Shown: in pieces, positions 6,238-49,623 of the stretch
Position numbering within the stretch: position 1 is the first letter of the stretch
Layout of the letters: every line of letters starts with the position of its first letter
Origin: Cenococcum geophilum
Taxonomy: Eukaryota
Length of the DNA: 64,000 nucleotides
NCBI GenBank assembly: GCA_050273025.1
Contig: CP158635.1
Coordinates: 8,618,001-8,682,000 of the forward strand
Reading direction: 5' to 3'
The notes under the pieces: generated by a model
Seen by the model: only the letters and a program-made list of their open reading frames with translations
What the model was told of the DNA's origin: nothing
Database searches by the model: none
Made by a program: the position numbers and the translations under genes

Positions 6238-6252
6238 TATATAGCTACTAAA

Positions 6253-15808: not shown

Positions 15809-16079
15809 CGAAGGCTGACGGCTTTGAAAACGGTCCATCTGCTAAAACGTAAGGAACACCAAAATCTCTACCTTTTGGAATTCGTATGCAATTTTAACCC
15901 AACACCCAAAACTCTTAATTAAAGTATTATATAACAGAGAAGAAGCAGATTAGTTATTCCCCAGAATTTTACGATAGTTAAATTCAAGGCGCAATTGCTA
16001 TTTATTTGTTATCGCGGGCCTAGAATACGCAAAATACTCGCTTAAAAAATTGGACCGTTTTCAAAGCCGTCGGCCTTCG
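15809..16079. mobile_element. 271-bp MITE, Tc1/mariner type
   Basis: 29-bp TIR CGAAGGC(T/C)GACGGCTTTGAAAACGGTCCA at both ends; TA at 15807-15808 and 16080-16081. Confidence 0.9.
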
Positions 16080-26900: not shown

Positions 26901-28100
26901 TTATATAGTACCATAGTATAGTGTTATTATATTCGCTATCTTTATAGTATACTATACGGTATAATAAGAATCCGTTTAGGTTCTATTGCTTAGCATTTAT
27001 AAAGTTAATTATATTGGTATTCTATGTTTCTAGGTTAATATCCTTCTCGTACTTCTTTAGATAGGTTAACGCTATAATAGGTATAAAATCGATAGGGTGT
27101 TATACGTTAAAGGTAGGTAGGATTTTCGGTTTTATAGGATCTTATAGGTTTACTGTTAAGAGGTAGGTAATTTAAGATGTTGTTTAATACGTTTTGGACG
27201 TTATTTAACGCGTTTTAGACGTTAACTTAGGACCGTAGGTTTAGTAACACTTCTAACCTAAAGTACTTAACCAAATCTTCATAAACGTGGTTGTTCTATA
27301 TAATAAACGCAACTTAGTATCTCCTAGTACTTAGTGACACTTTTATTACTAGTTTTCCGTAAGTTTAAGGTAGTATAGTATTACCGGGATCCATTCCATA
27401 TAAGCGCATATAGCACCCCTATACGAGACTGTCTCTTCTATTTAAAAACCTAGCTGCTCTATAGTTAACTGTGTATTTAACTACTGATTAGTATTAGTTA
27501 TATAGGGTAACTTACCAATAACGACTACTTGAGTAGGTTATAGTGATGTTAGTTAATAAAGCTTGTTAATTGGAATGAGGAAGGGCGAGGAGCTTAAGAC
27601 TCCTCGCCACGCTAGTGCCGCGGCGTTACGTAACAACCGCTTGCCTTATTCCCGACAGATATAAAACAATAGAAATCTTTTAAATTAGCTATAGATTTCT
27701 AATACTATAATATCTATATCTTTATAAATATCCTCCCTATTTCTATATTATAGAAAGATAATTTTCCCTATATAGATAGCTAAGTTATTAGAGAGGATAA
27801 GGTTAAAAGTAGGGTATAAAATAGAGAAGTAGGATTTTTTTATTTATCTTTCTAGGTACTAAGTTCTTATACTAGAATAAGATCTATTTTTTACTAAATC
27901 CGCTTTCTAGTAGAGTTTACTATACTTCTTATCTTTTTCCTATATTATATTATATAAAGGAGATTTCCTTTTCTTTTTATATAGAACCTTTTAAATTTAT
28001 ACTTATTAATATACTAATTTAGCTACTTTGGGAGACTCGCGGTCTTTACTATTAGTAAAGTGTTTTTCTTTATAATTAATATAAAGAGGAGTAGTATACT
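21000..28100 (-). mobile_element. Second-family LINE endonuclease relic interrupted by the Copia insertion
   Basis: DLILVQE (~27865-27885) on one side of the Copia; FIL.GDYNL (~21430-21460) and IDLAF...GSDH (~21200-21295) on the other. Confidence 0.6.
21560..27657 (-). mobile_element. Full-length (6.1 kb) Ty1/Copia-like LTR retrotransposon, RIP-inactivated
   Basis: 166-bp LTRs at 21560-21725 and 27492-27657 (TG..CA); 5-bp TSD GATAT at 21555-21559 and 27658-27662; minus-strand order gag/Zn-knuckle (~25670-25700), integrase, RT (GMQTDD ~23065-23082), RNase H (NPADAMTK ~22200-22227). Confidence 0.93.
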
Positions 28101-28569
28101 CGTAAGATCTACCTATTATATTATTATTATTAATTTATTACTTAACGCCTAATTTAGATCCCTAGCGCGGGGCTACGCAGACTGCTCTATATACGTAAGG
28201 GAAAAGTAATATTAATAGGAAAAACCCCCTAGCATATTAGGGGGAGAAAAGCTCTATAAGCTACCTTACTAAGGTAAACCTATATCAACCATTTATATAT
28301 ATAGCTGCGGCTCCTTACGGCTGCTTAAGCTACGTCTTTAACCTCTATTAGATATTAGATCTCCTTAATAACTACTATATCTTTCTTCTAGCTTTTACAG
28401 CTAGGGTAAAAGAATTCTATAAAGACTATCCTTTAGAGCCTATTTTAGCTAAATAAACGAAATATAAAGGTAAACGACTGCCACCTAATATAAATATACG
28501 AAATATAATAGTAAGAAGCTTAAAATTAAAAAGAACTTATAATATAGTTATATAATATATATGATATTA

Positions 28570-28980
28570 ACAAACTTTAACCGCTGGTTAAAGTTGTTTA
28601 ATTAGCTAGATTTACCTTACTAAGACTTACTATAAAGATATTAGTTCTACATACTGCCTTAACTAGGCTAATAGTAATTTTCTATTTTAGGGATAGAAAA
28701 TCCTAATTAGTCTATTTAATAATTAGAACTAGTAAAACTCTATACTACTACCTAACGTAAGTATATAAAATATAATAAGTTATAAGGTTTTAATTAATAT
28801 TAAATTATTTTAGATTTTTAATTAAAGGAGGGGGGGGTATTATAATAGGACTAGCCTAGTTATAGTAGGAATGTCTTAGTAAACCACTTAATAATAAAAC
28901 CCGACGCTTTAACTAAATTCTACTAAATTCTACTAAGTTCTACCAGATTAATTAAATTTTACTAAAGTTTGTTAAAGACT
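28570..28980 (+). mobile_element. Remnant 3' UTR, polypurine tract and LTR start of a related LTR element
   Basis: 28570-28710 resembles the reverse complement of the Copia 3' UTR (21940-22080); purine run AAAGGAG(G)n at ~28824-28837 followed by TATTAT (possibly RIPped TGTTAT). Confidence 0.4.
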
Positions 28981-30971
28981 GCGTATATATATATATATAT
29001 ATGTTAATCGCCAAGACCCCTAACTATTTAATTATAAAATTCTTATATTATTCCTTTCACTTTTTTATATAATATCTTATTCTCTATAAGAGCTATACCC
29101 TTAGATTTAGATAGAATATATTTTATTCCTCCAAACCTACTCTAAAGCCTCTTCGTGCCCTTATAGGCTAGTAGTATAACTAGTTACTTTGCTAGTAGGG
29201 GAAGATAAGGTAGAGGAAGGAGAAGGAGAAGAAAGGCCCTTTTTTAGCTTTCTACGTAGGTTTTTAGGGTTATTTCTTTATAGAGGGCTTTTACTTCTTC
29301 TACTGGTCCCTTTAGAACCTTTTTCCTATTTTTCCTTTCCTTTTATAAAGGGATTTTCTTTTACTAGAATACCCTATATATAGTCTCCTAACTATTTAAC
29401 TTACTCTTTTTCTCTTTCTTCTTCTAGCCTTTTATATGCCTAAGTTAGGCTTTTTAAAGCCTTTTATAGGTATTATTCTAGTAAAAGCGAGAAGAAAGGT
29501 ATGCTAGCCGTAATAGGCTTAAGCCCTACTATCTTTATTATTTATTTTTGGCTCTCTTTTTCAGGAAAAGATTAAGCGCAGTATCTTTTTTTCGTTTATT
29601 CTTATATAGCCTAGAGGTAGATTATCTACCTTTCCTATTTCTATATCTTTTCTAAATAGATAGAGGGAGGACGGAAAGGAAGAGGTAAATAATAATTCGT
29701 TATTACTTATCTCTATAAAAGGCTTTTTTTTACTCCTTAAAAGCCCTTAATATTTTAAATTTAATAGCTTATAGCTATAGGGGGGTTTCCTAGTGTTTTT
29801 AGTAGATAAAAACTTCCTTAGTTCTTTTATCTCCTAGTTCTAAAGGTAAAAAAAACTAGGCAAAAAGACTTACTAGTTTTTACTATCCTTCTACGCCTTT
29901 TCTCTCTACTAACCTTACTAGAGAACTTCTAGAGAGTTTAGGCTAAAAGGTAGTAGAAAAACTGGGGTAGTTGTTTTCTTTTACTACTAGAAGTAGAAAA
30001 AACTACTATAAAAAAGGTAATCCTTCTCTTACTAAGGAAATTCTAAGTAAAGGATATATAGAAAATTACTTACATATCTTATATTATTAGGCTTTTGTTT
30101 TCTATAAAGAAAACCCTAGAAAAAGTCTATATTTTATAGTTTGAGTATTTCTATATAAGGGGACTTTGTAGATAGGAGGCTATAAGGATACGATTGTGGA
30201 ATAGGATAAATTGGTAAGAAAGACAAATCCTTAAGGAGGTAAGGCCTTTAGGATTGTAGAGACTATATACTACGGGTATATGCCTCTAGTACGTGACTAA
30301 TAGACGTCTAAGGGGTATCTAGGGGTTATTCTAAGGGAAACCTAAGGTAACCGCAATAATATCCCTTATATTACCCCCTCCTTCTTATAGTCGGCCCCTA
30401 ATCGCCATTACCTTATAGTAGAGGGAGGTTATAAGGGCTTATCCTAGAAAGGGTTTAGAGAGATATTAGTATGCTATTATATATTATCTATCTATCTAAC
30501 CCCTACTTTAAACTCCTGAAAAACTTTAGTAAGGAAAAAATATAACTGGAGAAAAGATATAAGGATTGCTAGGAAACCTATTAGAAGCCTACTAGTAACT
30601 ACTTAGGCTAACCTATAGATTTTTATGCAACTTTATATCTAAGCCTTTACGCTAATCTGCAATTAATTATAAGTATTATAGGTAATTTAGTGTTCCTAAT
30701 ATAGTTCTATAGAACCATTTAATATATAGCTTAATATATAGGGCCTTAGCTTACCATCGTCTTTAACTATTAAGATATAATCTATAATCGTTTTTTATAA
30801 ACCTCTGCGTTACTAATATATTATTCTTATATTTGCCCTTTGGCTATTAAATACAGTTAAGGTATTAATTAGTTAATTAAGGAGACCTACCTCTTAAGAT
30901 TTAGTATATATACTTTTAAATCTAGTAGTTTTATGCCATATATTTAGTATAGCTCTACTACTTAGTAAATA

Positions 30972-31520
30972 GGAAGTGAACCTTCAAACCAGAAAAGTAA
31001 CCGTCCGACCTCCAACCGGGCTTAGACCGCCTAGCCCACGCTTAGACCGCCCAGCCCACGCGCGCTTAGGCCAAATCTCAACGTTGCCACTAAAGATAAG
31101 CCCCTTTCTCGGAAAAGTTAGTAAAATTCTATATGCGGCTTAGTTAGTGCCTAGAAATATCTAGTACGCCTCAACATAAGATAGGGTAGGGGGTTAGGCT
31201 TACTTGAGATAATATGCCATATTTTATAGATTTTCCGAGAAAAAAATCTACGTTTAGTATTTTTTTCTACTACCTACTGGACTGTTACCATAGAACCTAG
31301 CGCCAGGTTTCTAAAGACACGTAATTACTAGTAAAATTAGCTTGAAGCTTCTTCAAGACCGAAAAGTAACCGTCCGGTAACCGTCCGGTAACAGTCCAGT
31401 AGGGGTCTAAGGGTAGTAAAAGTAACCGTTCTTAAGGGGTGCTACCGAGAATTTAGCTTTATATGCTAGAATTTCCGAGAAAATATTAAAAGCGGGCATG
31501 CGCCGCAGGCACGATTTTTT
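30972..31520. repeat. Motif-rich segment at the outer edge of the foldback element
   Basis: AAAAGTAACCGT at ~30992, ~31361 (with GTAACCGTCCG iterated) and ~31417; 20-bp GCTTAGACCGCCYAGCCCAC twice at 31020-31059; TTTCCGAGAAAA at ~31232 and ~31472, inverted at ~31105. Confidence 0.6.
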
Positions 31521-31527
31521 TTACATA

Positions 31528-33610
31528 GACAGAGCTCTGTGTAGAGCTTCGATAGAGCTCTATTTTAAACTTTAATAGAGCTCTATTTTAAGCTTTGATA
31601 GAGCTCTGTTTAGAGCTTTAATAGAGCTTCGTCTAGAACTTCGATAGAGCTCCGTGTAGAGCTTTAGTAGAGCTCCGTGTAGGGCTTTGGTAGAGCTCTA
31701 TATAGAGCTTTGGTAGAGCTTCTGGCAGAGCCTTTGGTAGAGCTCCGTACAGAGCTTGGAAGAGCTCTACGCGGAGCTTTAGTAGAGCTCTATGCGGAGT
31801 CTTGGCAGAGCTTCTGGCAGAGCCTTTGGTAGAGCTCCGTACAGAGCTTCGGTAGAGCTCTACGCGGAGCTTTGGTAGAGTTCTATGCGGAGTCTTGGCA
31901 GAGCTTCGTGCAGAGCTTCGTAGAGAGCCCTGGCAGAGCTTCGTAGAGAGCCCTGGCAGAGCTTAGTGCAGAGCTTCGTAGAGAGCCTCTGGCAGAGCCT
32001 TTGGTAGAGCTCTATGCGGAGTCTTGGCAGAGCTTCGTGCAGAGCTTTGAGGAAGCTTCGTAGAGAGCCTCTAGCAAAGCTTCGTGCAGAGCTTCGGCAG
32101 AGCTTCTGGCAGAGCCTTTGGTAGAGCTCCGTGCAGAGCCTCGGTAGAGCTCTACGCGGAGCTTCGGCAGAGCTCTATGCGGAGTCTTGGCAGAGCTTCG
32201 TGCAGAGCGTCTGGCAGAGCTTCGTGCAGAGCTTCTGGCAGAGCTTCTTGCAGAGCTTCTGGCAGAGCTTCTGGCAGAGCTTCTAGCAGAGCCTTTGGCA
32301 GAGCTCCGTAAGAGCTTCGGTAGAGCTCTATGCGGAGCCTTGGCAGAGCTCCGTGCAGGGCTTCGAGGGAGCTTCGTAGAGAGCCTCTGGCAGAGCTTCG
32401 AGCTTTCTGGCAGAGCTTTCTGGCAGAGCCTTTGGTAGAGCTCCGTGCAGAGCCCGTGCGGAGCCCCGTGCAGAGCCCCGTACAGAGCCTCTAGTAAGCT
32501 TTAGTAGCTAGGGAAATTAATTATGGAGTCTAGCTTTAAGCTAGAATTATTATAGATTAGTAGACTGAGTCAGAGGCCCCACCGTAAGCTCTGTACGGAG
32601 CTCTGCACGAAGCTCTACCAGAGGCTCCCTACGAAGCTCTACACGAAGCTCTGTCAGAGGCTCTCTACGAAGCTCTACACGAAGCTCTGCACGAAGCTCT
32701 GCACGAAGCTCTGCACGAAGCTCTGCACGAAGCTCTGCACGAAGCTCTGCACGAAGCTCTGCACGAAGCTCTGCACGAAGCTCTGCACGAAGCTCTGCAC
32801 GAAGCTCCCCTAAAGCTCTGCACGAAGCTCCCTTAAAGCTCTGCACGAAGCTCTACCAAGACTCCGCATAGAGCTCTGCACGGAGCTCTACCAAAGGCTC
32901 TGCCAGAAGCTCTACTAAAGCCTACACGAAGCTCTACCAGAGGCTCTACGAAGCTCCCTCGAAGCTCTGCACGAAGCTCTGCCAAGACTCCGCATAGAGC
33001 TCTACCAAAGGCTCTGCCAGAAGCTCTGCCAGAAGCTCTGCCAGAAGCTCTGCACGAAGCTCTACCAGAGGCTCCCTACGAAGCTCTACACGAAGCTCTG
33101 CCAGAGGCTCTCTATAAAGCTCTACACAAAGCTCTGCACAAAGCTCTACCAGAGGCTCTCTACGAAGCTCCCTCGAAGCTCCGCACGAAGCTCTACCAAG
33201 ACTCCGCATAGAGCTCTGCACGGAGCTCTACCAAAGGCTCTGCCAGAAGCTCTACGCGAAGCTCTACGCGAAGCTCTACCAGAGGCTCTCTACGAAGCTC
33301 TACACGAAGCTCTACCAGAGGCTCTAAGAAGCTCCCTTAAAGCTCTGCACGAAGCCCTACCAAGACTCCACATAGAGGCTCCGCGTAGAGCTCTACCGAA
33401 GCTCTATACGGAGCTCTACTAAAGGCTCTGCTAGAGGCTCTGCCAGAAGCTCTGCCAGAAGCTCTACACAAAGCTCTGCTAGACAAAGCTCCCTTAAAGC
33501 TCTGCACGGAGCTCTGCTAAGACTCCGCATAGAGCTCTACTAAAGCTCTGCGTAGAGATCTACTAAAGCTTAACACGGAGCTCTACTAAAGCTCTATACG
33601 GAGCTCTATA
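31528..33610. repeat. 12-bp-unit minisatellite array (GCAGAGCTTCGT family); orientation flips at ~32510-32570
   Basis: Well over a hundred AGAGCT/AGCTCT cores; ten perfect GAAGCTCTGCAC units at 32681-32800. Confidence 0.95.
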
Positions 33611-34099
33611 TTTACTATAAATTAGATTAATCTAATTTTTATTAACGTCTAGTTCCTATATAGATTAATATTATACTAAACCAGATTAGCGTTAAGCTAT
33701 ATAAAGCTATTAAGCTTTAATTAGTAGGAGATAGATTCTATTTATAGAATATAGATATTACGTATTAAGGATTAATTATTTATAGGTAATTATTTTATGT
33801 TATTTAGGTATTTATAAGTATATACTTTTATATATACCTATACCTACCTAACCTATTATAAGCCCTATATCCGCGGCTAATTCTATTAAAACTATAGTAT
33901 TTATAGCTTTCTAAAGTATATCTTTCTAAGTTAAAAACTTATAGATTAATATAGTTAATAGTTAATTTAATATTATAATAAGTAGTTTATTTTAAAGGAA
34001 AATCTTATTAATTAATTTTTAGTAATATAGCTCTATATTAAGTAGAGCAGCTATATACTAAATAAGGTAGATCTATAGAGTAGAGTAGCTAAATATAGA

Positions 34100-34850
34100 A
34101 GTATTTAATATTAGTATTTCTAAAGGTAATAAACTTATCTTTTAGTAGGGCTTTAGTAAGGCCGTTAACTACGTATTTTTTATTAAAATATACTATAGCT
34201 ATACTTTTTCTTTAGTCTATCTCTTCTATATATAGAAATATTAGATTATAATATACTTTATCCTAAAGTAAAATTAGAGGTTTTTAGCTAATACTATAGC
34301 GTCTTAGTTATCTCTATAGATTATAGTTACTATTAGATCTTTTTTTAATTTAAGTAGTTCTACTAAGAGGTATCTTAGCTAGACGGCTTTTTTAGAAGCC
34401 TTATAGGATAATAAGGTAATAACTACTTATCTCTTTAATAACTAGCTAATTACTTTACTTCTAATATTAAAGATATATTATTTAGTATAATATTTAGTTA
34501 TAATATCTCTTATTTAGTCTAAGTTAATATATTTAACTAGTTATTTTAAGGAATTAAAGTAGGCTAACTTTAGGTTAATAGTATCTTAAAAGTATTAAAA
34601 TATAAAGTTCTTTAAGTTAGCTATATAGCGACTATAGACTAATATAGTATATATAATATCTAATTAAATTAAGGCCTATAATAGGTTTAGTAGGTATAGG
34701 TAATACTACTTTACTCCCTATCTATTTATAAAAGATATATCTAAAAAAGTATATATCTATAAATATCTAAATATTTTAAAAGAATTACTTATAAATAATT
34801 AACCCCTATTAGATATATCTACCTTCTATAAATAGAAACTACCTCTTACT
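34100..34850 (-). mobile_element. Copia RT/RNase H fragment lying between minisatellite blocks
   Basis: De-RIP reading GDNQ.AI.LAKNPQFHSRTKHI (~34250-34320) and DGLTKAL.KDKF (~34130-34170); no LTRs seen. Confidence 0.7.
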
Positions 34851-34854
34851 AATT

Positions 34855-35943
34855 AAGACTTCGATAGAGTTCTATCTAGAGCTTCAATAGAGCTCTGTGT
34901 AGAGCTTTAGTAGAGCTCCATATAGAGCTTTAGTAGAGCTCCGTGTAGGGCTTTAGTAGAGCTCTATATAGAGCTTTGGTAGAGCTTCTGGTAGAGCCTT
35001 TAGTAGAGCTCTATATAGAGTTTTATACGAAGTCTTAGCAGAGCTTCGTGCAGAGCTTCGTAGAGAGCCTTTAGTAGAGCTTTATATAGAGCTTCTGGCA
35101 GAGCCTTTAGTAGAGCTCTATGCGGAGTCTTGGCAGAGCTTTATGTAGAGCTTTAAGGGAGCTTCGTAGAGAACCTCTAGCAGAGCTTTTAGTAGAGCCT
35201 TTGGTAGAGCTCCGTGCAGAGCCTATATTAAGCCCATAAGAGCCCCGTACAGAGCCCCGTGCGGAGCCCCTAGTAAAGCTTTAGTAACTAGGGAAATTAA
35301 TTATAGAGCCTAGCTTAAAGCTAGAATTATTATAGATTAGTAAACTCTTAGTTTAATGCAGTACGGGCTAAAACTAAGTTAGAGGCTTTACCAAAAGCTC
35401 TACCAGAAAGCTCTGCGCGAAGCTCTGCTAGAAAGCTCTACGCGAAGCTCTACCAGAGGCTCTCTACGAAGCTCCCTCAAAGCTCTGCACGGAGCTCTGC
35501 CAAGACTCCGTACAGAGCTTTGAGGGAGCTTTATAGAGAGCCTCTGGCAGAGCTTCGTGCAGAGCTTCGTACAGAGCTTCGTGCAGAGCTTTATAAAGAG
35601 CTTCTGGCAGAGCTTCGTGTAGAGCCTTTAGTAGAGCTCCGTGCAGAGCTTTAAGGGCTTCGTAGAGAGCCTCTGGCAGAGCTTCGCGCAGAGCTTTCTG
35701 GCAGAGCCTTTAGTAGAGTCTCTAAATTAGTTTTAGCCCGTGCTACATTTAACTAAAAGTCTACTAATCTATAATAATTCTAGCTTAAGGCTAGGCTCTA
35801 TAATTAATTTCCCTAGCTACCAAAGCTTTACTAGAGGCTCTACACGGGGCTCTGCACAGAGCTCTATATAGGCTCTACACGGAGCTCTACTAAAGGCTCT
35901 GCTAGAAAGCTCTACCAGAAAGCTCAAAGCTCTGCCAGAGGCT
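34855..35943. repeat. Second minisatellite block, containing a ~530-bp internal palindrome
   Basis: Direct homologue of 31600-32570; spacer module at 35289-35385 recurs inverted at 35720-35816. Confidence 0.9.
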
Positions 35944-36178
35944 GAGTCTAAAGGTCGGAGAGTGTAGCCAAAAGCTCCAGAAGTATTCAAATACGCCACG
36001 TCGCAAAATCTTACACTTAATGAACTTTAGCCCCGTGCGCGCACACCTAATAAGCTTTTAATACAAAATTCTTTAAAATTATCATAATTAATATATTAAA
36101 GCTACACATTATTATATAATATTGCAACTATACCCTATCTTTGGCGTATTCAAGATCGTACAAATCTTAGCATTAAAA

Positions 36179-39100
36179 ATGGCCAATAATACGCAAGCAT
36201 CCCAAAGTGCGCAAAGATATATCCAGGATAGATTAACAATATATCCAGGATATAATCCAGGTACCCTTACGCACTTACCTATCTTGGGTAATTCTTCTAT
36301 ACTACTGCCAATAGAAAAAACTCAGCCTTTAATTAAAGACTTAGAATAATTACGGGAGGACTTCTTCTATAAAGGGCAACGGGTGTAGGAGGAACGCATA
36401 TATATGAATATTAAAGACGGTAATTAGGATATATCCGGCTTATATTAGGAGTACTACCAAGATATTTAATCCCAAATGCCCATGCTATAACGATCTACCA
36501 ACGCCTCTTCTTTAACGATAGTAGTAAGTAGAATTATATAACGCGAGCTATATATAATATATAAACTAATTATCTCTATAATATAGCCAGGCTTAATATT
36601 AATTATATAAACTGGATCGCTTGCAGTAGAAAGACTTATGTTTAATTAAGAAATACCGGAATATCCTATATCCTCTAAGCACGGGATTAGATATATTATA
36701 GATTTATCTAGCCTATAGCTGAATAATAAGAATATTACAAAGATATACGAAAATATAAGACACTATATCCTAGATAGATCCTATATATAACTTAGTTCTA
36801 ATATAGATAGATATAATACTTATGCATATTAAAGAACAAAATAAGTATAACATACCCTCTTTTTAGCCTCCAAAAGTATTTTAGAAGATAGATACCCTAT
36901 TTAGGCGTGTTTTATTACGAATATTTAGACCCTTAACTATAAAACTTTTATCACAAGCAAATTATAGTAGAGGACTAGGAAAGAATACGTAAATTATAAG
37001 AAAAAGTATAATATATCTATAATATTATGCTACTATATCTAAGTTATAATATAGACGTCACAAACTCTTATATATTTCCTCGGCGATTTAATAGAATTAA
37101 ATTAAGATAATATTAAACAAAGAAACACGAACACGTAAGACATTTATTTATATTATCTATTTTTATTAACATATATATAGGCTTTATAATAGTATTTGTT
37201 ATGCATTTTAGCACTAGATTGCCTATATAGAGTAGAGTACTAGTTGCAAGCTATATCTTTATATTATAAAGTATATAGTTAGTGTCTAATAGATCCTAAA
37301 TATATTACTACTATAACTAAGCTATAACTAGTCACTTATAGATAGACCCGTGGCAAGTATATACTATACTAAGGGAAGTCAAACACAGAACTATAAAAAA
37401 CACTACTAAAAGTCTCTTTCTTCAGTTTTAAGATACTTATTAAAGTATTTAAGAGATTTACTTAACCAAGGCTATTAGGGTACCCTAGAAACCTATGCAG
37501 CGGTAGAGCACAGAAAGAAAAGATCAGATAATTGCGGTAAGTTATTATAATATATATATAACTATGATATAACTATAATATAACTATAATATAATACTAA
37601 TATATCTAGGTTGTAACCACGCCCAAGGGCCTAGAAAATGGGTACTAGCCCCATATAACGTGGAGTTTAATTATATATAGCTAGATAATATTAAGGATTG
37701 CCCTTATATTATTTTAACTTCTTATGGTAAATATATGCATCCTCTAGCGCCTCCATCAAAGGTTCTAATACAGCTTATTAAAGAACTTTAATAACAAATC
37801 TAGTAACAGTCGGGGCTAGGGCTTACTCTAAGTATATTATATCTAAGCTATATTAATACTCTATTCTTACTCTATTAAGCTCTTTTATATATAGCCCTTT
37901 AATAAAAGAGTTTTGCGAAAAATACGATGTTACTAGCCTTCTAAGCCTTTATTAAAGCCTAGTAAATTTTAACAAGATTTAATATATAATTAAAAAGCAA
38001 TAGCTTTTATTATTTCTATAAGGTTAAGATATATAAGGGGTAATATTTAAAAAGCATCTGTATTATAAAACTGGTCCTGGATATATACAAGATATATTCT
38101 ATAAAAATGGTAAGCTAATAATTATATACTTTTAAAAAGGCCAGGCAGAAATACTATTAACGTTAAAAACGTTTAAAATTGATATGTCGTTTAAACGAGT
38201 TGGTACAGCTAGGCTAGATAAGGTTATAATTGCTGTAAATATCCCTAGAATTAATAAAGGTATTATATAACCCAGTTATATTATGGTTATATCTTTATTC
38301 TAATAAGGCTATAGTTATTATACTAATAAGAGTTTTTATAAACTAAGCTATGGGCCAATTAGCAGAGATGTATTAACAACTTTTCTATACTATATTCCGC
38401 TTATATAAGAATTACGGCTATTTAACTTATTAGAGTTATATCTATAAACGTGGATTTTATGCAGCTCTTATAGATATGGATAGGGCGCAGGCAAAAGGTA
38501 TTTTATAATACGTATATGTTAAAGATATTACTAAAATATATTAGGGCTTGGCCTTTACCTAGTAGATATTAACCCCTCGCAGACCTGGCAGGGCTATATG
38601 AAGTCTACAATTATATATTACCAAATCCACATTCTTCGCGGTATTTATTGGGTTATTAGAGCCGGAAATATAGGCTAAGATAGTATTAGGTAACACATGG
38701 CTTTAATTATGGAGGCTATAAGCCGCAAGCAATACTATAAAATTTTAGACGCGATTAAAGGTATAGAGATATTATATCCCTAATTAATCCATACTATATC
38801 CATATTCTAACATTCACGGTTATAGAAAAGTATAGTAATAACCATAAAATCGTAAACTGGTGTTGATATAAGCGATATATATATATTACATCTGGAATAA
38901 ATCTATATTGTAGTAAAATAGACAGCAATATATTCTCTATAATTATAAAGAATATAAACGCCGTTGAATGCTCCCATTTTTAAGCGAATAATCTTAGGCA
39001 TTAATTAAGCCTTTTAGCTGCTATTTTAATGTTAGTATATCTTATATATCCGTAATATAGTATTATAATAACAATTATAGTGGATAAAGAATTAATATTT

Positions 39101-39871
39101 TTAATTTTAAAGCGTGGAAGGCGTATTATTAGCATGGGATTTTATATATATCGCGAACTACATCTATCGCTAAAAGAATGGCTCTGGTAGAGAAGCGTAA
39201 ATGTATAGATTTATTATAGCTCTAATATGGATATATTGCTAATATAATCTGTTATAGTTCTATAAGTTTTAAAAGAGCTAGAAAAATTAAGAAAACAGGC
39301 CTATACTAGTAAAGGAAAAGCTAATGCTATATCTATAAGTATTAAAGAGAATAAAAATTTTAATTTTAATAATATTATATTAGATATATTATCTTCCGGA
39401 ACTAGTATACGCCCACGGTTATAATTACAAAGTTTGCGAGGCGTATAATTAAAATCTCACTTATAATCTCTTGCCTCTATTCGCTTTAGTATATTATATT
39501 TTAGATCTTACCAAATTCTATAAAGCTAATATTTTTTAGTTTCCTCTATTACAACATTAAATGATAGTTAAGTTTCGCTCTCTCCTAGGCCTATTTCACC
39601 GTTGGGTAGGATTATCTAGATATATCCTTAATATATCCAGCTTATAAGCTAACTATATCTAGGACATAAGAGTAGCTCCCAGTCTTTACTTCGCATAACT
39701 ATTACTTAATAAGCTTAATTCTTATAATAGTTAATGCTACAGCAATCCCAATTAAATATTCGTGAGTAAGAAGCCTAGGTTTTACGTATAGAAGCTAAAG
39801 TAAAAGCAATTAAACTATAAAATTAAAAGATGGAATTGGAGCTTAGAAAATTAGAATAAGAACTTGGTTAG
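36179..39871 (+). pseudogene. Multi-intron Mutator-like (MULE) DDE transposase, RIP-inactivated
   Basis: Ordered motifs: C..H.H segment CPYIILTS.GK.MHP (~37700-37745); F.IDMSFKRV (D at 38181); LIDMDRAQAKG (D at 38473); (C)QIHILRGI (~38619-38645); N.NAVECSH (E at 38966); coiled-coil-like C-terminus; many GT..CTAA..AG introns. Confidence 0.72.
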
Positions 39872-39949
39872 TACAAACTTCTATATTTATAAGCATAAAG
39901 GGCGGAGGTTATATTAAGGTAATTACCTAGATATAAAGACATTATAATG

Positions 39950-42090
39950 TTTAAGAGAAAGCCTAACCGCAATACTCCGCGCTATACTCTATGCTCCGCG
40001 TAATATTCTATACCTATAATATAACTAGGATCTAACCGGCATACATCTAAAATGTATAAACGCCTTAACCTAATTAATCTACACGGCGTAGTCCTCCTTA
40101 GTATTAAACATCTCCCTATTATTAAAGTCATCTATAATCTCTGGCAGCGTTATATTAGGTAAAACAAAGTTCTATTTACAGTTAGATTATAGATATATTA
40201 GTAATATAATTAAAGAATATAAGTATACCTTATTAAACCAGATATATATAGCCTAGTTAGATAAGCATACTATTTATATTAGATCTAAGATATAACAGAA
40301 ATATAACTAGTAAACTTACTCTTGCTATTAATCCTACATAAAGAACATTTCTGCTTATTTGACTTGCTAATAACCTTAAACATTACGGTGCGGTTAGGCT
40401 ATATTAAGGTTAGATTATAGTTATATTATAATTAGAACTGTATAAACTTGCCTTACCCTTAGGGGTTAATGGGATTCTAGAACGGAATATAATACGCGTC
40501 TACTAAACTAGCTCCTTTATAATCTGGTTAGATCCATAATATAATAAGATTATAAATAATAATATACCCAAATCTGCTAAAGTTGCTTTGCGTTTTCCAC
40601 GACCTTTAGCTATTAAGGGTATATTTTTAGTTGGGGGGGCTAAAATATATTAGCGATATATCCTAGATAGAAGAACAATAGTTTATACCATTATAATATA
40701 TTTTAGCCTTTCTCACTACTTTACTAATAGGGTATATAACCTGTAGTTCCTCCTTAGTACGAATAGCTCTATAAAGTGTCTTTTAAGCCGCTAAAATGGG
40801 TTAGATCTAGGATATAATATAGATATATAGATAAACATACTATCTAAGTTATCCAATTCCAGTTCTTTTTAACCTCTAGGCTTTACACTCCTAATTATAT
40901 AGCCTCCGCCTTTCTTTATTTTAAGGTTAGAAGGAGGTTATAATATAGATATATCTGGGATCTTATAGGAAAATACAACTTAATATGCTTGATTAATTCT
41001 CCACAACTATTTACGAATTTTTTTTCCTAACTGCAAATAGTGTGCTTAGTATTTAAATCCTATTATAGTTAGATCTAGGATATAATAAAGATATATAGCA
41101 CTTATAACTTACAGTCTTCCTAATAGCATAATCCCATCTATAGAAAATCTCCTTTAGTAGAATATAGATAAGGAAATATTTGCCGCGGGGCTATATTTAG
41201 GTTATATCTTAGATATAAGCTAAATATATACTAGATATTACCTTAATATAAAAGAACGGAATCTACCCTAGGCGCTTGTTAAGTCCAAGGTACTATGCCT
41301 TAGTATATTAACTAGGGGCACTAAAAATGCGCCTCTTTATAGTATTTAGCTAAAGAGCAGCATTATAAGTGCCAGAACCCTCACCCTTACTACTATTTAA
41401 GTCTAGATTAGAATATGCCTTAGAAGCTACTGCCCTATTTGCTGGAGTACTATATATAGCTATTATAGTGGCGTTTATATCTTAGATAGAGCTACTAGGG
41501 CTACTAAGGACTTTATTAATAATCTATTAAGGTTAGATTATAGATATAACGTGGTTTTATCTAAAATATAACTTATATCTTATACGACCTCCATCCTACT
41601 AAAAGTATTTACCTGCCTATTTTAGAGAAAATTCTTAGTCTATATCCTAATTAGATCCTTCTTATAACTACCAGAAGTCACATTACCTTATTATAAAATT
41701 ACGTGTTTAGACTATTAAGTAGTGTCTATTCTATATTAGATTATGGATATAACCTAAATATATACATGCGCCGCTTATATAAGAGTTATCACGGCTATTC
41801 TCTAGGGGCTAAAAGGGATTTGGCGGCAACTAATATAGTTTAGTTAGATTAAGATAATAATATAGATGGAATATTAATAAAATACCTTTTCTGCTCTAGA
41901 TTGCTGGTTCTCTAGGGTCTATAGCCACATTAGATCCTTAATAAAACCTTAATATAACCTTAGTATAACCTCCCAAAACTTACCTCGTCTATATTATTAC
42001 TTAACTCTTTTAAAATCATAATAAATAGTATAAAGTATTTAATTAAAACTCTTAAATAGCTCTATTAATATTATAATTAAAATATATTAC
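39950..42090 (-). pseudogene. Multi-intron gene of unknown function, convergent with the transposase, RIP-inactivated
   Basis: Repeated minus-strand GT..CTAAC..AG introns separating short frames (e.g. RRIF.APSQYTEAWYLGLDKR.GWIPFF; FVLPNITLPEI.DDF...EDYAVWI.QV.AF.HFRCMP). No family recognised. Confidence 0.55.
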
Positions 42091-42241
42091 TGTTATATTA
42101 ACTCTAAACGTGATATAATAAGAGTTAAATTATATACCAAGTAAGGCTGTGTCAGCGTCAGATTATCAACACTAGCCGAAGTTTTAGCGCCTTAGCGAGC
42201 ACTAACAGAGCTTTCGGCAACACTGGCCGAGCTATATACTC

Positions 42242-44392
42242 CCAGAGGCTCTCTACAAAGCTCCCTTAAAGCCCTGCACGGAGCTCTGCCAAGGCTCCGC
42301 ATAGAGCTCTACCGAAGCTCTTACGGAGCTCTGCCAAAGGCTCTGCTAGAAGCTCTGCCAGAAGCTCTGCAAGAAGCTCTGCCAGAAGCTCTGCACGAAG
42401 CTCTACCAGACGCTCTGCACAAAGCTCTGCCAGACGCTCTGCACGAAGCTTTGCCAGACGCTCTGCACGAAGCTCTGCCAAGACTCCGCATAGAGCTCTG
42501 CCGAAGCTCCGCGTAGAGCTCTACCGAGGCTCTGCACAGAGCTCTACCAAAGGCTCTGCTAGAAGCTCTGCCGAAGCTCTGCACGAAGCTCTACTAGAGG
42601 CTCTACGAAGCTCCCTTAAAGCTCTGCACGAAGCTCTGCCAAGACTCCGCATAGAGCTCTACCAAAGGCTCTGCCAGAGGCTCTCTACGAAGCTCTACAC
42701 TAAGCTCTGCCAGAGGCTCTCTACGAAGCTCTGCACTAAGCTCTGCCAGGGCTCTCTACGAAGCTCTGCACGAAGCTCTGCCAAGACTCCGCATAGAACT
42801 CTACCAAAGCTCCGCGTAGAGCTCTACCGAAGCTCTATACGGAGCTCTACTAAAGGCTCTGCTAGAAGCTCTGCCAAGACTCTGCATAGAACTCTACCAA
42901 AGCTCCGCGTAGAGCTCTACCGAAGCTCTGTACGGAGCTCTACTAAAGGCTCTGCTAGAAGCTCTGCCAAGACTCCGCATAGAGCTCTACTAAAGCTCCG
43001 TGTAGAGCTCTTCCAAGCTCTATACGGAGCTCTACCAACGGCTCTGCCAGAAGCTCTGCTAAGACTCCGGATAGAGCTCTACCAAAGGCTCTGCCAGAAG
43101 CTCTACTAAAGCTCTATATAGAGCTCTACCAAAGCCCTACACGGAGCTCTACTAAAGCTCTATACGGAGCTCTATTAAACTTCGAGACGAAGCTCTATCA
43201 AAGCTCTAAACAGAGCTCTATTGAAGCTCTATACGGAGCTCTACTAAAGGCTCTGCTAAAAGCTCTACTAAAAGCTCTGCCAGAAGCTCTGCCAAAAGCT
43301 CTGCACGAAGCTCTGCCAGAGGCTCTACTAAAAGCTCTACTAGAGGCTCTGCACGAAGCTCTACTAGAGGCTCTGCACGAAGCTCTGCCAGAGGCTCCTA
43401 TAAAGCTCCCTTAAAGCTTTACACGGAACACTGCTAAGACTCTGCATAGAGCTCTACGCGGAGCTTCGGTAGAGCTCTATATAGAGTCTTAGGACAGCTC
43501 CGTATAGGGCTTTAGTAGAGTTTTAGTAGAGCTCCGTATATAGCTTTAGTAGAGCTCCATATAGAGCTTTAGTAGAGCTCCGTACAGAGCTTCAATAGAG
43601 TTCTATGCGGAGTCTTAGTAGAGCTTCGTGTAAAGCTTTAAGGGCGCTTCGTAGAGAGCCTCTAGTAGAGCTTCGTGTAGAGCTTCTAGTAGAGCCTCTT
43701 ATAGAGCTTCTTATAGAGCTTTTAGTAGAGCTTCTTATAGAGCTTCTAGTAGAGCTTCTTGCAGAGCTTCTTATAGAGCTTCTTACAGAGCTTCTAGTAG
43801 AGCCTTTAGTAGAGCTCCGTGTAGAGCTTTAGTAGAACCCTATGCGGAGTCTTAATAGAGCTTTATAGAGAGCCTCTAGCAGAGCTTTTAGTAGAGCCCT
43901 ATATAGAGCCCCGTATAGAGCCTCTAGTAAAGCTTTAGTAGCTAGTAAAATTAATTATAGAGCCTAGCTTTAAGCTAGAATTATTATAAATTAGTAAACT
44001 CTTAGTTAAATATAGCATCGGCTAAAACTAAGTTAGAGGCTTTACTAAAGGCTATACTAGAAAGCTCTGCTAAAAAGCTCTATATAAAGCTCTGCTAGAG
44101 ACTCTCTACAAAGCTCTATACGGAGCTTTATATCTACTATAACGTCTACTATAATATCTACTATAAAGCTCTACTAGAGCTCTCTGCGGAGCTTTATTAA
44201 ATCTCTATATAGAGCTCTATTAAAGCTTTTCGCGGAGCTCTATTAAAGTTCTACGTGGAGCTCTATTAAATCCCTATATATGCCTCTAATAATACCCCAC
44301 GCGGAGCTATACTAAGCTTTATATAGAGCCTTATATAGAGCCCTATATAGAGCCTTATATAGAGTTATATATAGAGCTCTATATTTACTATA
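42242..44392. repeat. Right minisatellite arm; 42242-43230 is an inverted copy of ~31590-32390
   Basis: The chance ORFs at 32084-32438 (+) and 42266-42584 (-) are near-identical; spacer module recurs at 43942-44040; ends GAGCTCTATATTTACTATAA as at 33601-33620. Confidence 0.93.
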
Positions 44393-44439
44393 ATATCTAC
44401 TATAATATTTATCTAACCTAACCTATTATAACCTTTACT

Positions 44440-47400
44440 ACTAAATTACTTATATATAATAGATAATTTAATAAAACTACTAAGGAGCCGCTATAGTAGT
44501 AGGATACGCCCACTAATTACCTAGAATATAACTATTATATAAACAATAACAGGAAAAAAAAATATATATACTAGCGGAAAGGTTTTTTTTATAAGGGCTA
44601 AGTAGACCTATAAGATACTAGTAGCTAAAACTACCCTCTACCTCTAAAGATAAGCTAAATAGTTTTAGTAAAGGAAATAAAAGAAGCTATATAGAGGCTT
44701 TTTATTAGTAAGGCGGTAGGGCTAAATAGTATTCTAAATAAGGCAATTAAAGTTATATTAAAAGTCTTAATAATACTATTAGCTAATACTATAACTAGCT
44801 CGCGAAGCCCTACTACACGTGTCTATGTTACCACAGGTGGAAATATTATTAGGAAACCCTTCCTTATAACAGCTAAGTGTAGAGGTAATAGTAAAGAGCC
44901 GTTGTAGCGTATATAGTGCGCTATAGTGTTAGGCCTGCGACGCGTATAATATATCGCCCCTAATATTACTAGGAGCCTTACTACCTCCGCTTAAGGTTCC
45001 CGCTCTACTACCTAGGGAGGCCTATTAAGGGAAACTAGGATATAAAAACTACCGAATATATAACTACCTAGCTTATAGCTAGGCCCAAAACTAGCCTTAT
45101 TATCTAGTTAGTTAATATAAATATATTCTAGTCGTAAAATAGGATACCCTTAGGCTTATACTAGCTCTAAGATTATAAAGAAACATAGCGATGGCGTAGG
45201 AAACCTCTTTTTATAAGAACTTATTAATATTAACCCGTTATAGATACCTTATACGAAACTTATTAAGGCCTTAAGGCTATTACGAAGAACTTATTAAGGC
45301 CCTATATAAAGAACTCGTTAAGGCCCCTCTATAAGAGCCTATCTAGTATATCTAGGAGATTTAGAAGAGGGTCTTAATAGGCGTAGTACGCGTGACCTAG
45401 ACGATAGCGATATAATAGCGACGCGATAGCGACTAGACGGCTTAACGAGGTGGAAATATAGGTAAAGCTCTAGGCAGCGGAAATATAGGCTAGCTTTAAC
45501 GGCCCTATAACGTTAAAAGGCGACTTATAGGAGGGTCTTAATAAGCGTAGTATATATAACCTAATATATAGGGAAGGCTATAGGGGAAATATAGGCTAGT
45601 TAGATAAGGACTTAATAGTTAGAGATATAGGCTAGCTTATAAAAAGGGGGGATATAAGCTTAGTTAGTAGAATAGGGTAGAGTAGATTGCCTGGCATAGG
45701 ATCTAATTTACGGCCCGTTCTATAAGATATAGTCAGCCTATTATAAGGAGACTTTTATAGGTAACGTAAAACGGGAACTAGTAGTATATATAGGGTATTA
45801 CGCCCCTATATTACTGCTAACCTCCTAAAGGGGGTAGTGCGTAGTAGCTACTACTAGCTTTAAGGACCTTACCCCTTAGCTAGGCTTTAACCACTAGTAT
45901 ACCTAGTAAGTATATAGGATTACGTCCTAGCCAGAGAGACTATTACGTAGCTTAAGAGAATAGATACGCGTATTAGTATATTAATAGACGGAGCTGTTCG
46001 TTAGGATGGTATACTAGTAAGATATACTTAAGGAGTAAATAAGATTTACCTAGGCGGGTAAGGCTTTTAGCTAGGCCTTAACTGTAAAAGGTATATAATA
46101 CCTAAAGGTAGGATAATACTAGAAAACTAAGGTAGGGGCTTAGATAAGTAGGTATATTAAACTCTCCTATATAACTACCTACTTTTAAACGTATATGCCT
46201 ATTATATATAGTAGTAGTAAGGCTAATAATGCTATACGGCTTCTAGATCTAGGGCCTAGGACTAGGCGGTAAGGGACTAGTAAAAAGTTCCCTAGCGCTA
46301 CTAGCTAAGCTATAAAACTAGTACCTATATAGAACTATAGGGGCCTATAGAAGAATACTACGCGCCGTACTAGAACGTAAAGTAGTAGTTCTACTACTAG
46401 ACTTATATATTAATATAACTACTATATAGAGAGTAGTTATAGTATAAGGTTACCTAGTAGAAGAAAATATACGCTAAATACTAAAATATATATAAGGAGT
46501 AAAGGCCCCCTAAGGGGCAATACGCCTAAGTATACTAGCTAGGAAGCCCTCTACTTATAGATAGTAAAGAGAAAAAAGGAAATACGGGAACTACTAACCT
46601 ATTGGGCGGAGACCCGGCGCTATACTAGTAGAGCGCTACTATAGCAATAGAGGATAGGAGGCTATTAGTATAGATAGAGATCTATTGTACTTATTATAAG
46701 ATAGGCAGACCTTAAATAGAGGTAATAATAGAAGGAGGTAGCGAAAATATAAGACGTAGCTATATAGAATACCTATAGTTAATACTAATACTCTATATAT
46801 AAAAGACTAATAAAAGTAAAATCTATAGCCGTTTTTTTACTATAGATAGAGGTTTTAGACCTAAATATATAGCTAGTAAGTATCTATATTCTAAATACTA
46901 CACCTTAATATACGTGCAGATGGCCTATTTAGTTAGTGCGCTATATACTACTTTTCTATAGCTACTACTTAGTAAAGAACTAGCTATTTACTAGTATAGG
47001 TATATATAATACTACCTAGATACTCTCTATAAGTAGGGGCTTATAAGTAATAGTAAAATAGCTTATAGGCTAAAAAGTCCTTTAGTAGTTTTAAATAGTT
47101 TATAAGATTTAATAGGAGGATACTAAAGAATACGCCCCCTTTTAGCCCCTTAGGGACTAGATACCCCCACCTAACTATAGGCGGCACTTTGGCGAATTGC
47201 TAGACCCTCCTACTATATCCCCCCTAGATCTTCTAATATACCTAAAAAGTATAGTATATAAGGTAGACCTAAAGATATAAAGATATACTAGCTAGACGAA
47301 GGTAGAACGCGTAGGACTAGCTAAAAGAAAATACTTAGGTTTTTCCCCTTTATAGGGCCGTTTCCTATATAGAAAGATAGAAGCCTATATAGACCTAAAA

Positions 47401-49075
47401 AGGGGCCAAATCGGGCAATAAATAGAATTAATAATAATACTACTATAACTATCTACCTCTATAAAAGTAAGCTACTAAACTACTATAAAGTAATAATTAT
47501 AATTATTCTAAGAAAGGTAAATAAAAAGGACCACTCCCTTTTAGGAAACTACTAACTAATTGCCCTTAAAAATATAATAGAAAAGCTTTTAAAAAAGATA
47601 GTTATAAAACGTATATAAGAAGCCGTAAAGGAGTAGGGACTACTACTATAGATATAAATACGTATAAGGAAAAATTAATTAATACTCTTAGTCCTCTCCT
47701 TAATTACCTCTAGTGTCTAAATAGCGTAGTAAGCTTACCTAAGTTATATAGTAACTATACTAAGCCTAGGCCTAAGCGGAGCCTTTAATAGTATATTATA
47801 TAAGAGACTCTTATAGATCCTAAGGAAGAAGGGCCTACTAGACTAGATAGTTAGGTTTACCTAAGCCTTCTAAATTAGGCATACTACTAAAATAGTATTT
47901 AAGGGCTATAAAAGTAAAATAATACTAATACCTATAGGGATCGCCCCTATTGCTAATCCTAATCCTAATTTTATATTTAGGCTACTTAAGATATTTAAAA
48001 GTAATTAAAAAATAGTAGCCTTAGGATTTATAGATAATATAAACCTAATTATATAGGGAAATATAATAGTAGAAAACTATACTAGGCTAAACTAGGCGTA
48101 TAATAGGTATATTATATAAGCGACCTATAGGGGAGTAGTTATAAGGTATAATCCTTAGTATATATAATAGAGAGTAAGTAAGCTAAGTAAGGGTTATAGG
48201 GAGTTAATAGAAGAGGTTTATATAGTAAAGAGTATAGGTATAGCCTTAAGGGAAGAGATAAACTAATAAGGGAGGAAGGGTTATAATCCTAAGGCCTAGC
48301 CTTCGGCTAGCCTTAGTAGCCCCTAAGAGCTTTATAGATATATACCTGAGTAAGGGATAAAATATCCCTTATAGTAGTAGTATTTATAGCGGTATTATAA
48401 ATCGCAGCCTTAACCTAAGGACCCTTATTTAGATATATATAACTACTATATATAGTAGTAGTAAGGCTAATAATACTATATAGCGCCTAGATCTAAAATC
48501 TAAGCCTAAGTAGTAAGCTACTAGTAAAAAGCTCCTTAGCGCTATTAGCTAAGCTATAAAACCAATACCTATATAGGATTATAGGGGTATATAAAATAAT
48601 ACTACGTGCCGTACTAGAACGTAAAGTAGTAGTACTATTACTAAATATATATATAGATATAATTACTATATAGAGAGCAGTTACGGCATAAGACTACCTA
48701 GTAGAAATTTTTTTATTAAATAGTAGAGCGTATATAAGGAGCGAGCGCCTAATAAAGGGGTAATGTGTCTAAGTATATAAGCTAAGAGGCCCTTTATCTA
48801 TAAGTAGTAAAAAAAAAAAAGGAAAATAAGAGAATTAATGCTACGCTAATAGAGTACTATTACGGTAATAGAGGCTAGGAGGCTATTAATATAAGTAGAA
48901 ACCAATTATATATATTATAAGATAGGTAAATAGTAAGTAAAAGTAACGCTAAAAGGAAGTAGTAAAAGTATAGAGAGTAGTTATATAGAATACCCTATAG
49001 ATAATACTAACTCTTCCCCTATATAAAATATAGATAAAGGTAGAATTTATAGCCGCCTTTCTACTATAGATAGCC
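44440..49075 (+). mobile_element. Tad1-like LINE RT relic hosting the copy-2 insertion
   Basis: KA.G.D.I.NKAIK (~44710-44750) continues after 47451 into Y..IAL.N...KL.EKIV, LSL.LSGAFD and GF.DD. Confidence 0.75.
44798..47440 (+). mobile_element. Chimeric LINE-type insertion, copy 2
   Basis: TSD TACTATAACTA at 44787-44797 and 47441-47451; 5' ~1.38 kb homologous to 6253-7980; 3' ~1.25 kb homologous to 9025-10300 with the same (aat)n tail. Confidence 0.85.
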
Positions 49076-49084
49076 TATATAGTT

Positions 49085-49623
49085 AGTGCGCGGGCTTTAA
49101 AAAATCGGGCTTTATATATCTACGCGGTAAAGCCTAGGAATCTAGTAGATAGCTATTGGCGTTCTATTAGGATCGTGCTAATAGACTGCTAGAGTAAATG
49201 TAGAGACGTATATATAGTAGCGCAGCGCCGGCGCTGTAATGTAGTAGTAGCGTAGATAATATTTTTACTAGGAGAGTAAGCCCTAATAAAAGCTTTAAAA
49301 ACGACTACCGCGTTTTAGTCTTAGCAATTACGTCTATATATTAAATTTACGACTTAAGTTACAGCATCTATACTAGCGTTCCCCCTTCCTTCTATATAGT
49401 AGATAAGATAATATAGTACTACGTATAGTACTACATAGCACCTATACGGCATAGCGACTAAATAAATTGTATACGCCTTAGGAAGTCTATAATAAGCCTC
49501 TTATTCCCTATCTTACCTAATAGCCTAGATTTACTACGCGCGGTATTCCGTCTTCCTCTATATCTTTAGCTAAAGATATATATAGGGGACATAGATTAGG
49601 GCTTTAGGAAAAGATACCTAGTT
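49085..49623 (-). repeat. 3' half of the repeat-X copy, inverted
   Basis: Reverse complement aligns by eye with 1450-1836 (gggcttac.ctcctagtaa...gcgctgcgct.ctata...tttactctag.agtctattag). Confidence 0.7.

Follow-up and report, generated by a model that had tools for sequence, protein, structure and literature searches.

The question that this locus raises is whether the 12-bp tandem arrays on either side of a pair of convergent genes are the ends of the transposon that carried those genes, or belong to a separate repeat family. The locus occupies positions 30972-44392 of a 64,000-nucleotide stretch of the Cenococcum geophilum genome (contig CP158635.1, positions 8,618,001 to 8,682,000), which we call the window and in whose numbering all coordinates are given. 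An earlier note, made from the letters alone, had described it as a large foldback-type Mutator-like element with minisatellite arms around two spliced genes. We find that the genes are those of a dead, rearranged copy of a two-gene Mutator/IS256-like DNA transposon, lying in an AT-rich repeat region degraded by repeat-induced point mutation (RIP), and we lean toward reading the 12-bp arrays as that transposon's cognate composite foldback-type ends.

The block is an island of 0.40-0.59 G+C enclosing an A+T-rich core of 0.23-0.34, in a 64-kb window that is elsewhere mostly 0.27-0.38 G+C. The core (35961-42200, ~6.2 kb) holds the two convergent genes and is RIP-degraded. Arrays of a 12-bp unit with an AGAGCT core take up 31531-33610, 34865-35960, and 42200-44390.

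The + strand gene

The gene on the + strand runs from an ATG in good context at 36178 to ~39880 and has short introns, its frame changes coinciding with short GT...AG stretches. Because stop codons are found throughout the core of the gene, its frames were read through with each stop given as X. An exon at 37611-37790 then yields a GCM/WRKY-type finger whose pattern is kept, with Y replacing the second C and the first H, and 37800-38980 yields a DDE core with the motifs KIDMSFKR (~38180), LIDMDRAQAKG (~38470), YYQIH (~38620), and NAVECSH (~38955), in that order. A C-terminal coiled coil lies at ~39770-39870. The earlier note had picked out ordered D, D, CxxH, and N.VE..H motifs and had named an N-terminal C..HxH finger as typical of Mutator transposases; motifs and finger are both present, the finger also as a GCM/WRKY-type match in the model of a homolog discussed below. 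The CxxH of the window is now YYQIH, which reads YCQIH in the less mutated copy P0006, and this C to Y replacement is a RIP-type G-to-A change. With cysteines or histidines of the finger and the CxxH changed to Y, and 14 in-frame stops in the 354 codons of the four core exon blocks, the window copy of the gene is dead, inactivated by RIP-type changes.

Pfam recognized no family in six read-through frames of the core. A word-indexed protein search with the read-through frame of 37950-38699 returned 207 candidates, none of them scoring; that kind of search is too insensitive for RIP-mutated sequence, and full phmmer then succeeded. With the read-through of 37500-39299, phmmer found 62 proteins at E ≤ 10−3, including 14 at E ≤ 10−10, the best at E = 2.7 × 10−23. 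By tblastn, residues 285-606 of P0003 fall on 37615-38735 and residues 669-727 of P0011 on 38795-38977. Several short phmmer matches, with identities of 62-82%, derive from ENA or JGI/IMG records (P0006, P0020, P0021, and P0029), and we take these to be copies of the window element with fewer mutations.

A fungal transposase family that Pfam misses

Full-length members of the family are 600-940 aa long and come from Pleosporales, Onygenales, Xylariales, and other Pezizomycotina, and from two Agaricomycetes; most are annotated as single hypothetical proteins. The family alignment conserves VDMSYKR, DMDxKQxxGLG, CxVHFxR, WAxHK, and TNAxEQxH, with C...C...GIHxHPPPPP upstream, and the catalytic D, D, and E are kept across the family. 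Among 36 members, none had a significant match to any Pfam family, PF10551 and PF00872 included, and no hAT, KDZ, P, or Transib/RAG family appeared at E ≤ 10. One member is named 'MULE transposase domain-containing' in UniRef. A sequence-profile search of the PDB gave nothing meaningful, its best score (E = 0.046) being to an unrelated protein.

The AlphaFold2 model of the homolog P0003 has a predicted local distance difference test (pLDDT) score of 79.6, with the core above 90, and the RNase H-like DDE fold that the earlier note had expected is present in it. D458 is on or after beta1, D534/536 after beta4, C568-x2-H571 after beta5, and E660 after an all-helical insert. The best structural match of residues 343-702 is ISCth4, of the IS256 family (Foldseek E = 3.4 × 10−4, probability 1.0). 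VIA-align on the Foldseek list also puts ISCth4 first, with Z = 12.7 over 233 aligned residues, then 11.6 and 10.5, and an unbiased scan of 48161 chains ranks it 1 at Z = 11.6 with 262 residues aligned. Below it come Hermes (Z = 9.2-9.3), the P element (8.9), RAG (7.9-8.5), retroviral integrase cores (~7-8), and Transib (6.3). Comparison with MULE, hAT, Kolobok, and KDZ transposases had been suggested; what resulted for P0003 is a DDE fold with ISCth4 ahead and Hermes lower, no KDZ structure being among the listed matches. The N-terminal part of the model matches the GCM domain 1odh_A (Z = 9.1, 136 of 157 residues) and WRKY33 (Z = 5.4). A protein-language-model Atlas places P0003 beside clusters named or annotated MULE, which we take as a lead only.

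The product of the + strand gene was thus a transposase that joined a DNA-binding domain of GCM/WRKY type to an RNase H-like DDE core carrying C-x2-H, and it is Mutator/IS256-like by its modeled fold, its domain architecture, and the order of its catalytic motifs. The combination of a WRKY-GCM1 finger with this type of catalytic domain is described as a hallmark of Mutator-like transposases, fungal ones included (PMC1702500). The filing depends on fold and WRKY-GCM1 architecture, and the Pfam criterion fails nonetheless: PF10551, the Pfam MULE (Mutator-like element) model, was significant in 0 of the 36 members, with one at E = 0.19. Of the Mutator transposase first proposed, then, fold, architecture, and motif order stand and the PF10551 match does not, which counts against the placement. 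Babu et al. 2006 write that the catalytic domain is improperly defined in Pfam (PMC1702500). Within the Mutator/IS256 superfamily the family forms a fungal branch overlooked by Pfam, and Pfam-based repeat annotation will under-call it. Quite apart from the arrays, a transposase family widespread in fungi is thereby defined, one that joins a GCM/WRKY domain to an IS256-like DDE core.

A metagenome scan with a 7-row family alignment found 2 loci, L001 and L002, of ~5.1 kb each. The transposase relative in L001 is intact and intron-bearing, has 41% identity, and belongs to another subfamily; downstream of the transposase gene there is no similarity between L001 and the window.

The convergent second gene

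The second gene occupies 39985-41932 on the - strand and is intron-rich, with an ATG at 41930 and a 3' end between 40081 and ~39950; its last recognizable exon ends near 40080. The earlier description of a spliced - strand gene lying tail-to-tail with the other is borne out by strand-specific intron signals. In 39900-42200 the - strand has 4 instances of the strict pattern GTA[AT]GT...CTAA[CT]...[CT]AG and the + strand none (200 shuffles gave a mean of 0.07 and a maximum of 1), and a looser pattern gives 11 candidates in the region of the gene. The two genes thus meet tail to tail at ~39900-40000.

Searched by words, the longest exon had two matches, P0084 (56 aa, 73% identical) and P0085 (120 aa), the latter from the assembly of a public run. 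P0085 runs unbroken across the window exons 41829-41779, 41639-41574, and 41523-41353, and the ~50-nt gap between the last two of these in the window is absent from it, so a less mutated relative of the second gene exists in spliced form. Pfam assigned no family to P0084, P0085, or two exon read-throughs, and the Atlas held no usable match.

The short introns of both genes resemble one another (36100-42200). Three on the - strand (41112-41060, 40840-40791, and 40319-40270) share ...TATATC[CT]TAGATCTAA[CT]..., and a 31-nt direct repeat stands at 40800-40830 and 41068-41098 with 97% identity. Along L001 (1-5176) there are nine copies of a AACGCGTTC...CTAAC motif, mostly inside the gene. These recurring motifs of the window and of L001 are reminiscent of introner-like elements.

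Arrays, hairpin modules, and inverted arms

Over 28000-48000 the output of Tandem Repeats Finder runs to 62 rows, in which a single 12-bp unit whose AGAGCT half is invariant predominates. Among the period-12 arrays are those at 31704-32453 (64 copies), 32586-33479 (75.8 copies, score 559), and 42327-43397 (91 copies). With word counts per 100 nt, this confirms the 12-bp AGCT-core arrays of the earlier note, and no other 100-nt bin of the 64-kb window holds at least 3 AGAGCT or AGCTCT words. Array orientation was taken from the counts of AGAGC[TC] versus [AG]GCTC[TC] per 100 nt; P denotes an array with AGAGCT on the + strand, M its reverse complement, and L a loop.

The arms had been called minisatellites, and tandem repeats they are, with the correction that each arm is built of hairpin modules. 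Four homologous modules (H1, H2, H3, and H5) each consist of an array, a loop of 90-120 nt, and an inverted array, and have no coding capacity. Their centers align over ~200 nt including the asymmetric loop, which is conserved across modules, for example in the AAGCTAGAATTATTATA stretch. From the left, array P1 (31531-32490, +) is made of 12-bp AGAGCTnnnnnn units and is followed by the H1 loop L1 (32491-32585, +), a short variant with a 29-nt deletion, and by M1 (32586-33610, -), which has the P1 unit in reverse complement. Next comes a spacer (33611-34864) of G+C 0.21 and extreme RIP, with inverted ends at 33717-33836 and 34738-34856. H2 (34865-35505, +) is formed of P2 (34865-35270), L2 (35271-35394), and M2 (35395-35505). 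H3 (35506-35960, -), formed of P3 (35506-35707), the inverted L3 (35708-35835), and M3 (35836-35960), adjoins the core, and its loop is inverted relative to those of H1, H2, and H5; it matches H2 at 89% (pair I7) and, inverted, H5 at 88% (pair I12). At the right end of the core stands M4 (42201-43400, -), an orphan 1.2-kb array without a loop of its own, and then the RIP-affected H5 (43460-44390, +), with P5 (43460-43935), L5 (43936-44044), and M5 (44045-44390). M|P junctions fall at ~35503 and ~43430.

An inverted match had been placed at 31590-32390 and 42242-43230, and it holds: P1 pairs in inverted orientation with 42239-43249 of M4. Without gaps, five blocks of 185-242 nt match at 90-95%, pairing 32064-32305 with 42363-42604 (93%), 31685-31916 with 42856-43087 (94%), 32190-32393 with 42239-42442 (91%), 31758-31951 with 42728-42921 (95%), and 31570-31754 with 43065-43249 (90%). 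A gapped alignment of 31531-32393 with 43150-42239 reaches 85.5% over 915 columns. P1 and M4 differ at 52 of 712 compared positions, 35 of the differences being transitions. A run of perfect 12-mers within M1 (~32680-32800) shows that the arrays are still expanding, which could erase RIP marks and makes similarity between arrays a poor measure of time.

The arrays are open in several frames (42270-43109 on +, 32012-32500 on -, 32919-33422 on +), up to 279 codons, and their translation would give 4-residue repeats. These open frames are probably a by-product of a stop-free repeat unit.

Copies in other isolates and in RNA

In isolate B the core is multi-copy, with 4-16 contigs per listed site that differ from the window nearly always by C>T or G>A. 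Depth there over 35875-42282 is even, at 175-323, and the left unique segment (30972-31530) has 257, like the core. The spacer is represented by near-identical contigs in organisms B, C, and D, those of D over 33705-34857 departing from the window at 0-3 positions. Organism D has about zero depth over the left unique segment, P1, the core, and M4, depth holes not being proof of absence; this pattern could reflect either presence/absence polymorphism or lineages that differ by a rearrangement.

On the arrays, at 32671-33204 and 35341-35874, RNA reads accumulate to a mean depth of up to 488, and 1338 reads at 35610 share one loose-end consensus. The pile-up and the shared loose end imply that a highly expressed transcript from elsewhere contains an array-like stretch. 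In RNA run X22 the reported joints from one array to another have short sides, 20-49 nt long, lying in repeats.

One element or two repeats

The case for a single element begins with position. Arrays adjoin both core edges, at 35960 and 42200, the inverted pairs P1/M4 and H3/H5 bracket the core, and the arms are long, inverted, made of tandem subrepeats, and able to fold back. In isolate B the core is multi-copy and its depth even from edge to edge. The joint lack of the left segment, P1, the core, and M4 in organism D also links the arrays to the core, if weakly. The Mutator-type transposases already known inside foldback-type ends (Tm1, FARE, and Phantom) give the single element a precedent.

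The rival that survives best is that two unrelated repeats lie together here, an old Mutator-like two-gene element being nested in, or invaded by, a younger foldback or minisatellite family that moves or expands on its own. The true short ends of the element would then be within or at the edges of 35960-42200, and P1/M4 would be two members of the younger family or a segmental inverted duplication. We regard this as a distinct possibility, though not a probable one.

Most of what favors two repeats also weighs against a single element, and the first such point is that near RIP-free arrays stand beside a RIP-ridden core. The index (CpA+TpG)/(ApC+GpT) lies at 1.2-1.9 in P1, M1, M2, P3, M3, and M4, but falls to 0.64 in the core, to 0.2-0.3 in the flanks, and to 0.03 in the spacer. 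The arrays as they now stand are therefore younger than the RIP that inactivated the genes, or were spared by it. In the AGAGCT half of the unit there is neither CpA nor TpG, the dinucleotides preferred by RIP. Array words reach ~100 times the depth of the core in the contigs of another isolate (29164 in the deepest array bin, in M1, run X5), and 69% of the aligned reads of the RNA run continue into sequence unlike the window, much of it on arrays, so the array motif is present at many other loci. The loop is conserved through four complete hairpin modules, none of which has coding capacity. The core-flanking arrays M3 and M4 are in direct, not inverted, orientation, and no target-site duplication is seen at 31531/43248 (tacatagac versus actaaaggc), where RIP blurs the termini; the earlier note had likewise seen none. 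The relative L001, the one family member whose DNA was compared, has no tandem repeats in its 5.2 kb, its short flanks of ~366 nt upstream and ~1.6 kb downstream included, and organism D has arrays and spacer, not the core. Against the single element in particular stand the lack of clear similarity between the loops and the core ends, and RNA run X22, which has neither depth nor splice joints over either gene in the ~12% of the run sampled, besides the PF10551 result given above.

The locus's most repeated DNA, the arrays (31700-33480, 35395-35960, 42200-43100), keeps its CpA/TpG, while the adjacent unique or low-copy DNA (33611-34864, 36061-42130) is RIP-mutated.

Against two unrelated repeats, both core edges meet arrays exactly, and a second instance of the core/M4 junction is seen in isolate B, where one paralogous contig (record 22, 27 differences) spans 42022-42241 and so enters the first 40 nt of M4; it is the only paralogous contig to cross that junction. 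No short terminal inverted repeats were found at the core edges. An excess of non-autonomous foldback copies over coding copies is predicted equally by the composite model. A purine/pyrimidine BLAST for partners of the left segment and of the core ends was noisy and recovered only the inverted ends of the spacer. Of the single two-gene foldback unit as it was first proposed, the tandem-repeat arms and the convergent second gene stand; termini and duplication were not found, and the orientation of M3 and the RIP contrast do not fit.

Far less probable is that the two are domesticated host genes, a transposase-derived DNA-binding factor and its neighbor, beside an ordinary minisatellite. Transposase-derived WRKY-GCM1 proteins are described as having been recruited as fungal transcription factors (PMC1702500), and the annotation of most family members as single hypothetical proteins would suit this, but the window copy has multiple counterparts in isolate B (4-16 contigs at each site), carries 14 stops in 354 codons within a RIP-degraded repeat region, and belongs to a family that conserves the catalytic D, D, and E throughout. 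That the palindromic layout is an assembly artefact, such as long reads folding back chimerically, is scarcely credible even though missed adapters can yield hairpin-like inverted structures, given arms that are 65-95% identical and not ~100%, loop modules found four times with differing RIP loads, and contigs of three other organisms covering arrays and spacer.

A possible history of the locus

If the arrays are the cognate ends of the transposon, P1/M4 and the inverted modules H3/H5 would be remnants of the composite ends of the family. Active relatives would move by cut-and-paste transposition by the transposase, whose GCM/WRKY-type domain may bind the reiterated 12-bp unit in active copies, and the coding-free hairpin modules would be non-autonomous derivatives mobilized by it. 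For the mosquito Mutator-like element Muta1, transposition is reported to resemble that of hAT and Transib and V(D)J recombination (PMC5499845). The left side may have been scrambled by recombination or strand switching between near-palindromic AGAGCTCT units, or by nested insertions; strand switching or inversions at these units would account for the two M|P junctions as well as for the scrambled left side. Recent array turnover may have erased RIP marks in the arrays.

A bolder version, which we put forward as unlikely, is a fungal foldback Mutator family whose kb-long hairpin ends largely escape RIP through the AGAGCT half and fast turnover, so that ends and derivatives stay pairing-competent and spread or rearrange AT-rich regions after the transposase genes have been destroyed. 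If such RIP-escaping ends are real, the ends of a DNA transposon could outlive genome defense. The contrast between RIP-spared arrays and RIP-destroyed neighbors bears on how RIP treats short-unit tandem repeats, and also on what drives rearrangement in AT-rich, repeat-filled compartments.

Flanks and the rest of the window

The left unique segment (30972-31530) has G+C 0.43, is non-RIP, and contains short internal direct repeats; it has no second copy in the 64-kb window, and its belonging to the element is uncertain. Other repeat families make up the right flank (44522-49000); by BLAST they have copies, 72-93% identical, in further parts of the 64 kb, at 3200-10300, 14100-14600, 48400-49100, and 59800-63800, and only ~130 nt (44392-44522) lie between M5 and the first of them. 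The earlier note had the right end apparently cut by a LINE (long interspersed nuclear element), a reading that a Pfam search did not confirm: it found no families in three + frames of 44401-49202. When the flanks were compared by BLAST with the remainder of the 64 kb, no interrupted host element that would mark insertion ends came to light, and Rfam and tRNA scans of the block gave 0 matches.

G+C-rich islands (0.45-0.55) also occur at 16000-20000 and 58000-60000 of the A+T-rich window. Pfam, run on five long open reading frames (ORFs) outside the locus, yielded nothing beyond one DUF2076 match below threshold, and the ORF at 17689-18492 (267 aa) and its neighbors have no significant Pfam match.

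Relation to known systems

In the design of its arms the locus is like the animal elements FB/FB-NOF of Drosophila and the Phantom subclass of Mutator, a likeness drawn from description, not sequence. FB and FB-NOF have long arms of tandem subrepeats, with abundant hairpin-only copies and rare copies that carry coding DNA between the arms. Drosophila Foldback and the Phantom subclass have been grouped with Mutator, and foldback-type Mutator elements are reported from insects, nematodes, and plants under the names Tm1, FARE, and Phantom/FB (PMC3169594). As Tm1 of Meloidogyne is described there, the window element would resemble it in a Mutator-type transposase inside composite tandem-repeat ends (units of 13-15 bp in Tm1 and 12 bp here), in many coding-free derivatives, and in unequal arm lengths (PMC3169594). 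Tm1 has 7-bp terminal motifs, 9-bp duplications, a FLYWCH finger, and the Pfam MULE domain (PMC3169594). The window element, unlike Tm1, has a GCM/WRKY-like finger, is unmatched by PF10551, has kb-long arms that are themselves hairpins, and has a second gene; no termini or target-site duplication were found for it.

To maize MuDR it is likened by layout only, a Mutator-type transposase gene with a convergent second gene. The genes of MuDR are likewise convergent, and its ends are plain inverted repeats of ~200 bp, unlike the kb-scale repeat arrays here. The MuDR transposase gene is mudrA and the second gene mudrB, and ascomycete Mutator-like elements are reported with inverted ends of 22-99 bp, duplications of 9-10 bp, and one or two reading frames (PMC6446971). 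Like the window element, Hop and Mutyl live in fungi and carry a DNA-binding domain of WRKY-GCM1 type, in some cases along with a second ORF, mutB (PMC6446971, PMC1702500). They differ from it in that the table in PMC6446971 lists no foldback arrays for ascomycete elements, and in that the present family is unmatched by PF10551. ISCth4 (PDB 6xgx/6xg8), the best structural match, is an insertion sequence of bacteria; it lacks a GCM/WRKY domain and is only 6-8% identical in sequence.

The earlier note did not recognize this architecture as described in fungi, and a literature search agrees in having found no fungal foldback-type Mutator element, Repbase and most subscription journals being outside that search, so that a catalog entry is possible; the known cases given in PMC3169594 are those of insects, nematodes, and plants. 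If the arrays are not cognate, the locus holds a dead transposon of an ordinary kind inside a nest of repeats, its family being one that Pfam misses. If they are cognate, it is a fungal addition to the known Mutator/Foldback kind, one that extends the association from animals and plants to filamentous fungi, has two genes, and has ends that greatly exceed the 22-99 bp listed for the ascomycete elements.

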